Source: an uncultured delta proteobacterium
GTDB taxonomy: Bacteria; Desulfobacterota; Binatia; Binatales; Binataceae
Direction of reading: 5' to 3'
Assembly (NCBI GenBank): GCA_963711565.1
Contig: CAVQEQ010000004.1
Span: forward strand, 864,001 to 928,000
DNA length: 64,000 nt
Part shown: piece after piece, positions 45,621 through 49,607 of the stretch
How positions within the stretch are numbered: position 1 is the stretch's first letter
Layout of the letters: every line of letters starts with the position of its first letter
Translations under genes and position numbers: made by a program
The notes under the pieces: model-generated
Databases searched by the model: none
What the model was told of the DNA's origin: nothing
The model's input: the letters and a program-made list of their open reading frames with translations, nothing else

Positions 45621-46505
45621 GTGCGTCGCTCACTGATACTCGCACTCGTGATCTTCATGCTTGCATCCTCCGCACGCGCTGCGGATAACGCTGCATCCAG
45701 TTCTGCGCCGTCCTCTTTTGGCTACGGCGTCCTCGCCACGATCGAAGATTATTTCGCCAACTGGTTCGTCCGCTCCGACGCTGCCAAGGCCAGCCAACCC
45801 GACTGGCCCTCTCCTTTGATCACAGTAACGCCATTGCTCGTAGAGCAGGTGCGCTACGACCAGTACTGGGACACGCAATCGCCAAACGGGGTCGCGACGG
45901 ATAATTTCAGCGGCGGCAAGGGCCTGGAGTTGATACCCGAGGGTCACACCGAGCTGTCCATCGGAATGCCGCCGTTCTTGAAGCGCACCTACCCGCGAAA
46001 TACCAACGGCTTCGGCGACCTTCCTTATCTCGTGAAACTGCGCCTGCTATCCGCGAACGAAGCGAACGGCGACTATCTCGTTACCGCCTTCATGGGATTC
46101 ACCGTGCCGACCGGATCGAACGTCAACGGCGCCGGTCATGCGACGTTCACGCCGACGCTCGCCGCCGGCAAGGGCTTTGGCGATTTCGACGTGCAGAGCA
46201 CGGTCGGCGTGACGTTTCCTAGCGGCGGGCTGGATCGCCTCGGGATGCCGCTGGCGTGGAACACGGCCTTTCAGTATCGCGTCGGCAAATATTTCTGGCC
46301 GGAGTTGGAGACCAATTACACGTGGTTCTCATACGGACAGAACACCGGCCACAATCAACTGTTCCTGACGCCGGGCATAGTAATCGGACGGATTCCCATC
46401 AACGATCGCTTCGGCGTGACGCTCGGCACGGGCGACGAGATAGCGGTGACGCGATACCGTTCGATGAACCGCCGCTGGATAGCGTCGGCGCGCATCCCGT
46501 TCTAG
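45621..46505 (+). CDS. Outer-membrane beta-barrel transporter (MetA-pathway/phenol degradation-like family)
   Basis: Signal peptide (ARA), GFGDL, PTG, amphipathic strands, C-terminal Phe. Confidence 0.7.
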   Translation: MRRSLILALVIFMLASSARAADNAASSSAPSSFGYGVLATIEDYFANWFVRSDAAKASQPDWPSPLITVTPLLVEQVRYDQYWDTQSPNGVATDNFSGGKGLELIPEGHTELSIGMPPFLKRTYPRNTNGFGDLPYLVKLRLLSANEANGDYLVTAFMGFTVPTGSNVNGAGHATFTPTLAAGKGFGDFDVQSTVGVTFPSGGLDRLGMPLAWNTAFQYRVGKYFWPELETNYTWFSYGQNTGHNQLFLTPGIVIGRIPINDRFGVTLGTGDEIAVTRYRSMNRRWIASARIPF

Positions 46506-46518
46506 GCGACCCAATCTC

Positions 46519-49167
46519 TTATTGGATGCCGACCGGTCCCGACGTCGCGATCTTCAGTTTCCAGTTGGCGATTTCCGGATAGTTGCTCGTGTTCAATTGA
46601 TTCGTGAACGTGATCAGTCGCGCGGTGTCCGGGCCGTGCGCATCCTCGGCGCGTTGGCGCAGGTAGTAGGGCGGGATGCTTTGATAGTAGAGCGTCGCAT
46701 TCACTGCGGCGGCGTTCGATGCGATCGGTATCTGGTAGCGCACGACGCTGCAGCCGCATCCGTTCTTGTAGCTCGGGTCGTCGCCCGTGCCCACCGGTGC
46801 GGTGATATCGGCGTTGGGGCCGTTGAACGATCTTCCTTGCGGCTGAATGCGATTGTCTTTGACCTTGTGATCGAGACTTAGAAAGCTGGTCGTCAGCAGT
46901 CCTCGGGGATCGGTCGTCAGTTCCTCGTAGATCTCGACCTGGCTGTCGCTGGTGATCGGATTGTCGGTCCAGAAATGAGGCTGATAGGTCTGCTGCGATC
47001 TGCTGAAAAACTCGGTCGGCAGCGGATTACCCGCGTTATCTACGATGACGCCGTCGGAATTCGTGTTGCCCGAGGCCCACAGGACGTTACCGTCGGCGTC
47101 GAGCATCTGGAAATTCAGGAAGGCGCGCCGAAAACTCACTCCCGACGGAAAGTTGTGTCCCGCCAGGTTATCCACCTGCACGTCGGCTTGTAGCACGCCG
47201 CTCGTTTCGGTCGCTGACAAAATTGTAACCGTGGCCGTGCTGGTCTGAGCCTGCGTCACTGCCTCCGCCACCGCCGTCTTCTGTCCGAAGATCTGCTTCG
47301 CCAGAGGATTCGGCAGATTGGGATCGAACTGAAATAGCCCGAGGTCGGCGCGAAACTGATCGAACATCTCGAGCGCGAACAGGTTGATCCCGAGCAGTTG
47401 ATGGCGCCGATACGGCGACCGCGCTTCCAGGATCAAATCATCGTCGGGCAGGCGCGTTGACGGCCCCTGATCGGGCACGGCGGGGAAAGTGTTGTCCTCG
47501 ATATTCGCGATTTTGAATTGCAGCGGATTGTCCTGGTAGCTGTCGGGCATGTGGCATTGCTGGCACGGAATAGTAATGAAGCCGCTATTGAGCCACTCGA
47601 AAAAGGTGGTTTGCTCGTACTCGGATTTCGGCGCGCCATCTTTGATTACCCGATTCCCGTTGGCGTCGAAAACCGGCAGCAGAATCGTATGGCATGACGC
47701 GCACAGGTTGGCCTGCTGGATCTGGAGACCCTGGCTCGGCGTAATCCCCTCACTGTTCTGCATCGGCAGCGGGATAACACTGTCACCGCTCTTCGCACCG
47801 GTCGGGTCGGGATCCGACGGGAACGGCCCGTACAGCTCGCTCGCCGGGCCGACCTTGAAAAGTCCCGTTTCGGTCGATGGGTCGCCGAGCTGGTCGTCCG
47901 ACATGTGATGGCAGACCGCGCATGAGACCCCATCACGCGCGAGCGCGCCGTACTTCGATTTCGGATCCTGCAGCACCGCCCGCGTGAGCAATGTGTTCGG
48001 CCCGTTGCCTTTGTCGATATGAAATTGCCGCTGACCCATCACGCCGTGGCATCGAAGACAGAAGTCCTGGACGAACGCCGCGCCGTCGGCGACTCCCGCC
48101 AGATGCCCGTGTAGCGTGGATTCCGTGTCGAGCTGCGCAAAAAAGATCGGGTCGCGCCCCGCCAGTCCCATCATCGAGTATCGCCATTCGCCGTACTGCG
48201 ACAGGTTCGCCGGCGCTGGACTTTGCGCGCCATAAATCATGTTGGGGACGAGGCCGGCGAGCGTGCCCGTCGCGTCGTGACACTCCGCGCATTGGTCGGC
48301 GGTGACAAACTCCTGCGGACCGCCGGCGGACTTGGCGGCCGGGACCACGTGATCGAAGGCCTGCGAGACCATGCACGGCGCCGAGCCCTTCGCCAATGGC
48401 TTGAGCTTGGCGAAGACGGAACTCGGCAAGCGGTCAACGAACTTAGGGACCTGTTCTGCCGCCGACGCGCCCGGCAACTGCCGCGACGAAACATTGTGCA
48501 TATCCTCGATCATCGCCGTCGTATCCGGGAACGCGCCCGCGCCGGCCTCGCTCGGCGGATCGATATACGCTGTGCTCGAATAGGTTCCCTGATTGGCGAT
48601 CGCCGACGCGTGGCAATTCAGACAATACAAACCCGCGCCGTTGAACTGGATCTGCGGTTCAGCGCATCCACCCCCCGGCAACGGCGTCGGCGTCGCGTTC
48701 GGATTGCGCGGGCTCGGATTCACCAGGTCGGCCCAATACCAGCCGTCCCACGACAGCTTCGAGTCTTTGACCATCACGGTCCATTCGGACAGCGGAGCCG
48801 TCTGGCTCTGATACTGCTCCTTCACGACGATCGCGCCGTTGGGGATCGGCCCCGTGCGGTTTTTGACGGTGATCCAGTCGAACAGCGGCGGCGAGTACCA
48901 GACCCTGACGAACGGATGCACGCCGTCGCTGGTGCGCACCTGGGCGTCATGCTGCCAGTTCTGTTTCTGGTAGCAGAGGTTGTTCATGAAGGGAGTCAGG
49001 TGAACCAGGAAATTCGGGTCCGCCGCCGGCGGCAGTGGCGCGCATGGATCATTGTTAGATGCGGAAGACGCGGAGCCGCCTCCTCCTCCGTTGCCGCACG
49101 CAACAAGGATCGATAGCGCCAGACAAACGACGCCTAACGGTATTCGCCTCAGGAGCTCGGTTCGCAT
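46519..49167 (-). CDS. Hexaheme c-type cytochrome lipoprotein with N-terminal cytochrome P460-family domain
   Basis: Lipobox LVAC; PNGAIVVKE..VMVKD..DGWYW..CLNCH (P460 fold motifs); then CAECH, CLRCH, CAVCH, CASCH, CQQCH; C-terminal GHNFPSG..RR domain. Confidence 0.85.
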   Translation of the reverse strand: MRTELLRRIPLGVVCLALSILVACGNGGGGGSASSASNNDPCAPLPPAADPNFLVHLTPFMNNLCYQKQNWQHDAQVRTSDGVHPFVRVWYSPPLFDWITVKNRTGPIPNGAIVVKEQYQSQTAPLSEWTVMVKDSKLSWDGWYWADLVNPSPRNPNATPTPLPGGGCAEPQIQFNGAGLYCLNCHASAIANQGTYSSTAYIDPPSEAGAGAFPDTTAMIEDMHNVSSRQLPGASAAEQVPKFVDRLPSSVFAKLKPLAKGSAPCMVSQAFDHVVPAAKSAGGPQEFVTADQCAECHDATGTLAGLVPNMIYGAQSPAPANLSQYGEWRYSMMGLAGRDPIFFAQLDTESTLHGHLAGVADGAAFVQDFCLRCHGVMGQRQFHIDKGNGPNTLLTRAVLQDPKSKYGALARDGVSCAVCHHMSDDQLGDPSTETGLFKVGPASELYGPFPSDPDPTGAKSGDSVIPLPMQNSEGITPSQGLQIQQANLCASCHTILLPVFDANGNRVIKDGAPKSEYEQTTFFEWLNSGFITIPCQQCHMPDSYQDNPLQFKIANIEDNTFPAVPDQGPSTRLPDDDLILEARSPYRRHQLLGINLFALEMFDQFRADLGLFQFDPNLPNPLAKQIFGQKTAVAEAVTQAQTSTATVTILSATETSGVLQADVQVDNLAGHNFPSGVSFRRAFLNFQMLDADGNVLWASGNTNSDGVIVDNAGNPLPTEFFSRSQQTYQPHFWTDNPITSDSQVEIYEELTTDPRGLLTTSFLSLDHKVKDNRIQPQGRSFNGPNADITAPVGTGDDPSYKNGCGCSVVRYQIPIASNAAAVNATLYYQSIPPYYLRQRAEDAHGPDTARLITFTNQLNTSNYPEIANWKLKIATSGPVGIQ

Positions 49168-49355: not shown

Positions 49356-49607
49356 ATGGCGATGAATTCTGTGATCCCTTCTCCGATTTTCGAGACGCTC
49401 AGAGATTCAGAAGATACGCTGCGGACCACGCTCGCCGAGCTGGCCGAGGACAAGCGCAAGCAAAGGCCGAATATCTCCGAGCGCAAGCTGGCCGAGTATC
49501 TGGCCGATCAGATGGGCTATCGCGGCGCGAAGAACGTCGAAGCGCTGGTAGCCTCGCGCGAGCGAATCGCGAAATCACGCATGGCCGTTGGCTTAAGCAG
49601 CAAGTAG
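49356..49607 (+). CDS. Small hypothetical protein (83 aa)
   Basis: AGGTG RBS-like sequence, upstream TTGACA and TGnTACGAT elements, helical charged sequence; divergent from the cytochrome gene. Confidence 0.6.
   Translation: MAMNSVIPSPIFETLRDSEDTLRTTLAELAEDKRKQRPNISERKLAEYLADQMGYRGAKNVEALVASRERIAKSRMAVGLSSK

Follow-up and report, generated by a model that had tools for sequence, protein, structure and literature searches.

A P460-fold heme domain fused to a pentaheme module in a hexaheme cytochrome from Binataceae

Introduction

What does a cytochrome P460-type heme do when it is built into the same chain as a multiheme electron carrier? The question is raised by a gene at positions 46519..49167 of the window, by which we mean the whole 64,000-nucleotide stretch of DNA analysed here, on contig C4 of the genome of an uncultured member of the Binataceae. 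The gene encodes an 882-aa hexaheme c-type cytochrome, and our analysis makes it very probable that this protein is a P460 fold wired to a pentaheme module. Our preferred reading of its function, to which we assign a probability of roughly one in three, is that an iron-bound hydroxylamine-type substrate would be oxidised at a lysine-cross-linked P460 heme, with His84 as the base and a methionine-tuned heme chain as the electron sink.

In the literature covered, characterised proteins of the P460 fold are small and mono-heme, and assays of P460s used artificial oxidants. Members of the hexaheme family pair a P460-fold heme with an electron partner in the same chain and have a new kind of pocket, in which the lysine is kept, the carboxylate is gone and a histidine and an arginine are invariant, and the family can test both how general the carboxylate rule for hydroxylamine oxidation is and what role carboxylate-less P460s play. 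The fusion joins this fold with the pentaheme scaffold on which the new polysulfide reductase MccSep is also built. It defines a large family, common among soil lineages, and if its members act on hydroxylamine (NH2OH) or nitric oxide (NO) they bear on nitrous oxide (N2O) emissions outside nitrifiers. No description of a multiheme cytochrome that carries a fused P460 domain was found in the full-text literature searched, a scope that leaves supplements and most subscription papers outside; the words 'fused', 'fusion' and 'domain' are absent from a 2025 review (PMC11928373), and 'P460' from the main text of a survey of Desulfuromonadia cytochromes. Automatic database cluster names already pair P460 and multiheme domains.

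Domain architecture

The open reading frame begins with ATG, runs without an internal stop and has a GC content close to that of the flanking DNA; the gene is single copy in the 4.84 Mb host assembly, which is 94.9% complete. A preliminary description made from the letters alone had named a lipobox, a P460-type domain, five further CxxCH motifs and a C-terminal domain with GHNFPSG, and all of these are present in the intact frame, including the motifs VRVWY, PNGAIVVKE, VMVKD, GWYW and CLNCH. The six CxxCH motifs begin at residues 182, 293, 370, 416, 489 and 535; shuffling the protein 20,000 times yielded 0.01 such motifs on average and never more than 1. AlphaFold2 modelled the whole chain with a mean predicted local distance difference test score (pLDDT) of 89.8 and a predicted template modelling score of 0.90. 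The features are collected in Table 1.

Table 1. Features of the hexaheme cytochrome gene in the window, with loci of one neighbouring gene in relatives
Feature	Position	Strand	Basis or remark
Whole gene, 882-aa hexaheme c-type cytochrome (P460-fold domain + pentaheme/Ig-like module)	46519..49167	-	open reading frame, AlphaFold2
Signal peptide with lipobox LVA-C24, then Gly/Ser-rich tether	49096..49167	-	sequence; Cys in 60/104 non-gap close homologues
Cytochrome P460/c'-beta fold domain, residues ~40-203	48559..49050	-	profile matches, VIA, Foldseek, full-model structure comparison
Arg78, conserved, likely distal-pocket residue	48934..48936	-	108/111 non-gap representatives, 3 His
His84, invariant, in the loop with the capping residue of known P460s; candidate base or sixth iron ligand	48916..48918	-	
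Lys116, at the position of cross-linking Lys78 of M. capsulatus P460 (Phe61 in c'-beta)	48820..48822	-	alignments; Lys 109/114, Ala 5
Thr130, at the catalytic carboxylate position (Asp102 of M. capsulatus P460), carboxylate absent	48778..48780	-	alignments
CLNCH heme motif of the P460 domain (C182-H186), predicted at the interface with wire heme 1	48610..48624	-	sequence, docking model
Variable linker, residues 204-261	48385..48558	-	pLDDT <50 at 232-249; poorly conserved
Pentaheme domain of the PHC family	47248..48384	-	structure comparison, conservation, alignments
C-terminal Ig-like beta-sandwich with GHNFPSGV loop (47137-47160)	46522..47247	-	Val677 at MccSep selenocysteine 325 position
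GMC neighbour loci in relatives	L022:9471-11315, L028:7265-9109, L024:4913-6790, L002:4145-5634, L004, L005		

Residues ~40-203 adopt the P460/c'-beta fold, as the motifs had suggested; profile and structure searches establish this. When the AlphaFold2 model of the N-terminal domain was compared with 48,161 chains using VIA, the top five matches were the five P460/c'-beta representatives (Z 7.0-8.8, root-mean-square deviation (rmsd) 2.9-3.9, 111-115 residues aligned), with the next fold at Z 4.0. The top three Foldseek matches belong to the same family, the full-chain model scored Z 10.3 to 7EAD and 8.7 to 6HIU (c'-beta range 8.0-10.3), and ESM Atlas searches agree. A 150-sequence profile matched M. 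capsulatus P460 (McP460; 6HIU/9HRK) at E 1e-6 and c'-beta at ~0.01. Single-sequence searches of the domain against solved structures returned no P460 match and a small profile reached P460 structures at E 0.55-0.66 only, significance being reached with deeper profiles. One further alignment held the host's own canonical P460 and three stand-alone P460s; its E-values are inflated and it was therefore used for residue register only. The PF16694 hidden Markov model, proposed earlier as a check, falls short for this protein (18 bits directly and 22.7 bits in a second search, against a gathering cut-off of 27), and the fold is shown by the other searches; several homologues of the hexaheme protein do carry PF16694. 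A quick IQ-TREE phylogeny of the domain (58 fused and 4 stand-alone rows) was poorly resolved with long branches, and it shows neither a single origin nor a donor.

The C-terminal part is a known module as well. Residues 276-881 superpose on the pentaheme cytochrome c552 of T. tepidum (5ZE8) with Z 21.3 and rmsd 2.8 Å over 352 aligned residues, and hhalign against six ExtKL homologues gave 95.5% for the ExtKL/MccSep type. The PHC family to which these belong includes ExtKL, GSU2801 and cytochromes of cable bacteria (PMC11976967), the pentaheme protein PtdA (bioRxiv 2023.11.21.568154) and the polysulfide reductase MccSep (bioRxiv 2025.11.18.688581). The query itself does not match NF040886; for the homologue P0181 the score is 22 bits against 250.

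Structure prediction also places the two modules against each other. With the domains split and four hemes included, the interface score ipSAE reached 0.89, whereas the best of three controls scored 0.00; the mark used is reached by 116/157 solved complexes and 2/215 mismatches, counts that apply only roughly here. The docking runs share at least 88% of contacts, with partner pLDDT of at least 87. The predicted interface sets residues 178-191, which contain the P460 heme motif, and 136-142 against 291-304 (the heme 1 motif), 467-474 (with Met469) and 554-558, so that the P460 heme motif is predicted to dock next to wire heme 1; His84, Arg78, Lys116 and Thr130 lie outside the listed interface residues. 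Because the docked parts belong to one chain, the prediction speaks for a fixed arrangement of the two and is no demonstration of electron transfer.

A distal pocket with lysine and histidine and without carboxylate

Conservation was counted over 114 representatives with exactly six CxxCH motifs and 780-1,200 aa, which passed from the best 150 clusters of the homologue library; the 36 left out were 8 six-heme proteins outside the length range and, for the rest, fragments or shorter forms. Among the 114 the CxxCH of the P460 domain is invariant, and it aligns with the CxxCH near the C-terminal end of the McP460 domain. The lysine codon picked out in the preliminary description is indeed that of the VVKE lysine, K116, aligned with K78 of McP460, and this residue is kept at roughly 32-60% identity to the query. 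In c'-beta proteins Phe or Met stands in its place (PMC11928373).

The claim of a P460-like catalytic site holds for the fold and the lysine position and goes no further, since the lysine alone is insufficient and the carboxylate is replaced by Thr130. In known P460s the lysine cross-link is necessary and not sufficient, and hydroxylamine oxidation needs a distal carboxylate (Glu96/97 in N. europaea P460, NeP460; Asp102 in McP460), loss of which abolishes activity in the solved P460s, as does a Glu-to-Asp change (PMC11928373, PMC6457333). The Thr130 column reads T 50, A 39, S 8, V 7 and E 1 (n=114). As aligned, the N-domain lacks what known hydroxylamine-oxidising P460s have unless His84 replaces the carboxylate; with Thr130 at that position, hydroxylamine oxidation would require His84 as substitute base.

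His84 is the most conserved distal residue. A histidine lies 5-10 residues ahead of Tyr91 in 114/114 representatives, and His84 itself is found in 112/113 by column and in 114/114 within a two-residue shift. The capping position, which the tools did not align, falls on Val83 by ungapped extrapolation (Thr in 68/113), adjoining His84; this would place His84 one residue past the capping Phe, in the loop that holds Gln46 and Asn48 of McP460, which line the distal pocket there (PMC6427953). Arg78 would, by alignment, lie near McP460 Arg43. Val87 aligns with McP460 Arg50 and with His80 of the Nitrosomonas AL212 P460.

Five of the 114 full-length members (P0283, P0289, P0308, P0318 and P0322) have Ala for Lys116 and retain the histidine, and two of them also carry His for Arg78. 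They are a natural c'-beta-like derivative of the fusion, and the survival of the histidine where the lysine is lost argues that His84 is more essential than Lys116.

Such a pocket could instead serve NO, with the P460-fold domain binding or buffering the gas as c'-beta does and as the inactive P460 of AL212 does; the wire would then reduce or oxidise the bound NO in detoxification. AL212 P460, which is cross-linked and lacks the carboxylate (Ala131), binds NO and NH2OH without turnover (PMC11928373, PMC6457333), and in cable bacteria the same pentaheme family occurs fused to truncated globins that bind gases (PMC11976967). Structural scores are also highest for c'-beta chains (7EAD), though these are close to the P460 scores. 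The pocket is polar, however, with His, Arg, Thr and Lys where NO-binding c'-beta proteins have hydrophobic Phe caps, and the gene shows no association with the NO reductase qNor across the family genomes described below; we consider an NO role distinctly unlikely.

Three stand-alone PF16694 lipoproteins of 161-202 aa (P0370, P0375 and P0376) keep the lysine, lack the carboxylate and carry a distal-loop histidine. To judge from these alignments, an uncharacterised His/Lys subtype of P460 exists outside the fusion.

Likely heme ligands and a second candidate site in the pentaheme module

In MccSep, hemes 1, 3, 4 and 5 are bis-His ligated, heme 1 is the exposed entry point for electrons, and catalysis takes place at heme 2, which has Cys239 and Sec325 (bioRxiv 2025.11.18.688581). 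Outside the CxxCH motifs the module of the hexaheme family has only two near-invariant histidines, H589 and H671 (both 114/114). M333 (Met in 110/114) aligns with a His of the stand-alone PHC and ExtKL proteins, and M469 (Met in 113/114, His in 1) precedes heme 4, where those proteins have a nearby His. The distal ligands are likely to be Met333, Met469, His589 and His671, and from the positions of the two methionines at or near the His ligands of relatives we infer two His/Met-ligated wire hemes, with M310 (conserved in 108/112) as an alternative ligand. Hemes with His/Met ligation are generally of higher potential.

Around heme 2, Glu518 (113/114) and Gln519 (114/114) stand at about the position of MccSep Cys239/Cys240, and Val677 occupies the Sec325 position (V 108, A 5, T 1; n=114). 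With neither Cys nor Sec at these places, sulfur chemistry of the MccSep kind was considered and is excluded. E518, Q519, R338 (114/114), R680, R681 and K770 are nevertheless all near invariant around this heme, which argues that heme 2 probably keeps a second candidate active site. The 'own heme wire' of the preliminary description is therefore borne out as a pentaheme module with predicted docking at heme 1, and proves too simple as a plain wire, heme 2 being catalytic in the family (MccSep) and its invariant residues being kept here.

These observations lend themselves to a somewhat less likely alternative, in which His84 binds the iron as a sixth ligand and closes the P460-fold heme, which then serves for electron entry or storage at the exposed heme-1 end, and catalysis on an N- or S-containing substrate takes place at heme 2, in a site of Glu518, Gln519, Arg338, Arg680/681 and Lys770. 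The conservation of His84, which survives loss of Lys116, and of Glu518, Gln519 and Arg338 fits such a scheme, as do the division of labour between hemes 1 and 2 in MccSep with the P460 domain predicted at heme 1, and the existence of Met-type five-heme relatives that have a signal peptide and no P460 domain (P0316, P0324). It leaves unexplained why Lys116 is conserved at 96% and Arg78 at 97%; moreover, cross-link formation needs an open iron site, and the characterised members of the P460 fold are all mono-His ligated (PMC11928373).

The proposed reaction and its genomic context

We favour oxidation of a hydroxylamine-type substrate because Lys116 is strongly kept, cross-linked hemes are tied to oxidative nitrogen chemistry and the adjacent heme is likely His/Met-ligated. 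To our knowledge, the cross-linked P460 heme is known only for that chemistry. The protein, likely periplasmic and lipid-anchored, would be exported and fitted with six c-hemes, as its signal peptide and motifs and the cytochrome c assembly genes found in the host genome suggest. Lys116, whose position is shown, would then cross-link to the porphyrin as in P460s. Substrate would bind at the distal site, where His84 would act as proton acceptor in place of the carboxylate and Arg78 as hydrogen-bond partner. Electrons from the low-potential P460 heme would pass across the predicted contact to heme 1, which, like a second wire heme, is likely His/Met-ligated and of higher potential, and from there would run along the chain, either out to a periplasmic acceptor or into the conserved second site at heme 2; the product would be NO or N2O. 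According to Smith 2019 (PMC6457333), a basic side chain is needed in a suitable place and additional cross-links are regarded as a likely hallmark of oxidative enzymes, and the pocket of hydroxylamine oxidoreductase (HAO) holds Asp and His (PMC6427953).

Several observations weigh against this reaction. At the Asp102/Glu96 position an acidic residue is found in only 1/114 representatives; the Arg50/Arg44/His80 position, tied to cross-link formation in NeP460 (PMC11928373), is Val87; the lysine is lost in five full-length members that keep the histidine; and heme 2 retains its own candidate site. The genomic surroundings point the same way. The preliminary description had proposed a look for Cu-monooxygenases, and none came to light: no match to AmoC, AmoA, HAO or NirK was found in the 94.9% complete host genome. 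The AmoC search does work in relatives, matching 57/151 genomes of the host's family, and there AmoC occurs in 16/47 carriers of the hexaheme gene against 41/104 of the other genomes (p 0.59; related genomes are not independent). The presence of a qNor-type NO reductase in the host counts in favour of the reaction, but across the same non-independent genomes qNor is found in 18/47 carriers against 26/104 (p 0.12). No nitrogen-cycle gene was among the shared-neighbour clusters listed for two overlapping sets of 20 and 43 loci, or at the Paracoccus locus described below. The absence of an AmoC match and of a link to AmoC or qNor argues against the dedicated clearing of hydroxylamine from a resident monooxygenase.

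A distal His and Arg pair is the classic signature of peroxidases, and in bacterial di-heme cytochrome c peroxidases a His/Met heme acts as electron supplier. His84 and Arg78 might accordingly cleave hydrogen peroxide at the P460-fold heme, with the Met-ligated wire hemes supplying electrons. We regard this as unlikely: no solved peroxidase of the P460 fold was among the structure matches, and the cross-linked P460 heme is tied to oxidative nitrogen chemistry, as noted above. The patchy occurrence of the gene without nitrogen genes would suit general oxidative stress, and a gene for a GMC flavoprotein lipoprotein, possibly a flavoprotein partner or a peroxide source, adjoins it in 3/20 and 3/43 loci of the two overlapping searches, although this neighbour is limited to a few close relatives. 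A distal-Arg c'-beta of N. europaea has peroxidase-like activity, and peroxide is used in P460 maturation (PMC11928373). All other explanations together we consider improbable.

Two other heme proteins of the host genome are of note. The first (G000:C1:791286-792272, L064) is a second P460-family gene, encoding a lipoprotein of 328 aa that combines a class I cytochrome c domain with a canonical PF16694 domain (110 bits), a smaller fusion of P460 and electron carrier; its P460 keeps both the lysine and the carboxylate at the Asp102 position, and the gene follows a cluster resembling heavy-metal efflux genes. The second (G000:C1:1185544-1187082) is a secreted 512-aa di-heme protein, presumably akin to the di-heme oxidoreductase/peroxidase families.

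Comparison with known systems

Cytochrome P460 (CytL; M. capsulatus 6HIU/9HRK, N. europaea 2JE3, Nitrosomonas AL212 6AMG) shares with the N-domain the fold, the lysine at the cross-link position, a CxxCH near the domain end and the motifs G-x4-K, M-x-K-D and GW. P460s are small, single-domain, mono-heme and mostly homodimeric, and are marked by a covalent heme-Lys bond and a ferrous Soret band near 460 nm. This protein is an 882-aa fusion, and its N-domain differs from them in having no distal carboxylate (as in AL212 P460), probably no capping Phe or Arg, Val87 where Arg50 or His80 stands, and the invariant His84 and Arg78. Cytochrome c'-beta (6HIH, 7EAD, 7S5O) has the same fold and likewise no distal carboxylate; it is unfused and has Phe61/Met79 and a hydrophobic pocket, in contrast to the lysine, polar pocket and fusion seen here.

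With the PHC family (5ZE8, Geobacter ExtKL/MccSep, GSU2801, PtdA, and sPHC and lPHC of cable bacteria) the module shares five CxxCH motifs and an Ig-like domain with a GHxxPxG loop. It differs in carrying Glu518/Gln519 and Val677 instead of the heme-2 Cys ligand and Sec/Cys, Met for His at one ligand position and likely at a second, and an N-terminal P460 domain; its gene also lies outside any porin operon, unlike ptd or ext. The closest design is lPHCtX of cable bacteria, a pentaheme protein with a truncated hemoglobin, in which a ligand-binding single-heme domain is likewise set on a PHC module (PMC11976967); the fused domain there is a b-type globin rather than a c-type P460 fold, and the hosts differ.

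HAO, of which the preliminary description had been reminded, remains a functional analogy only, in that a cross-linked P460-type heme is wired to a multiheme chain. HAO has eight hemes, a cross-link from an inter-subunit Tyr in a trimer and an unrelated catalytic fold, where the present protein has six hemes and Lys; it has no match to PF13447 (HAO), and both its domains are assigned to other folds. Both parts of the hexaheme protein are known folds, and the protein is not a member of the active P460s, the HAOs or MccSep. By analogy it possibly works like HAO. That it is an independently assembled HAO counterpart, with a Lys-cross-linked heme, a His base and a Met-tuned five-heme sink ending in a second active site, is a doubtful proposition; were it true, non-nitrifying soil bacteria (Binatota, Acidobacteriota and others) would possess a self-contained converter of hydroxylamine or NO and soils an unrecognised route to NO and N2O.

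Family, distribution and neighbouring genes

A first homologue search returned 2,409 proteins among 7,999 scored candidates, and six CxxCH motifs are present in 117/121 proteins made up of the query and its 120 best matches. In a 50%-identity library, 2,035 clusters matched at E <=0.001 and 511 at 1e-30. Short matches were considered as stand-alone forms and rejected, being mostly fragments or frameshifted copies. The named close matches are Candidatus Binatus/Binataceae, and scanning species genomes, with the search limited by pattern, found 43 loci, of which 22 are labelled delta proteobacterium or Binataceae, 20 Acidobacteriota and one gammaproteobacterium. Within the host's family the gene is matched in 47/151 genomes, several copies occurring in some and two giving weak matches to the pentaheme part only. 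A full-length copy that retains all key residues, annotated 'hypothetical protein' (JHW44_RS15200, WP_089344214.1), is present in a cultured alphaproteobacterium, Paracoccus seriniphilus DSM 14827, and so makes the family testable now.

The membrane anchor claimed for the protein applies to the query, in which C24 is probably lipidated, and is not family-wide. A regular expression for the lipobox matched 20/114 representatives; it is insensitive (21/119 close homologues against 60/104 by column), so that 20/114 is a lower bound. Many distant members lack a lipobox, and on these motifs lipid anchoring is lineage-specific.

An operon was considered and rejected, as no conserved neighbours, among them porin or partner multiheme genes, appeared in the shared-neighbour clusters listed for the 20 and 43 loci or at the Paracoccus locus. 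Within the genus the gene lies beside genes for a dienelactone hydrolase, a small open reading frame and an enoyl-CoA hydratase; Acidobacteriota copies lie near tRNA/tuf genes or elsewhere, and the Paracoccus copy between ABC transporter and nqr genes. In the window, a convergent gene at 45621-46505 (+) encodes a secreted 294-aa protein that has no Pfam or NCBIfam match, ends in Phe like an outer-membrane beta-barrel and is not a conserved neighbour in the loci compared. Divergent from the hexaheme gene, an 83-aa open reading frame at 49356-49607 (+), without a confident family, is conserved in 7/20 loci. Neither a sigma-70-like promoter nor a convincing terminator was found at the hexaheme gene, and RNA evidence consists of a single 169-nt contig (at least 99% identity) from one RNA run, too little to count as expression. 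The GMC oxidoreductase gene, which encodes a Tat-type lipoprotein, adjoins the hexaheme gene on the same strand in the few close relatives that have it. A stand-alone PHC gene of the His type, coding for a pentaheme protein of ~540 aa, is located within a few kb of the hexaheme gene in at least three genomes (L043:2063-3673, G064:C2 and G087:C169).

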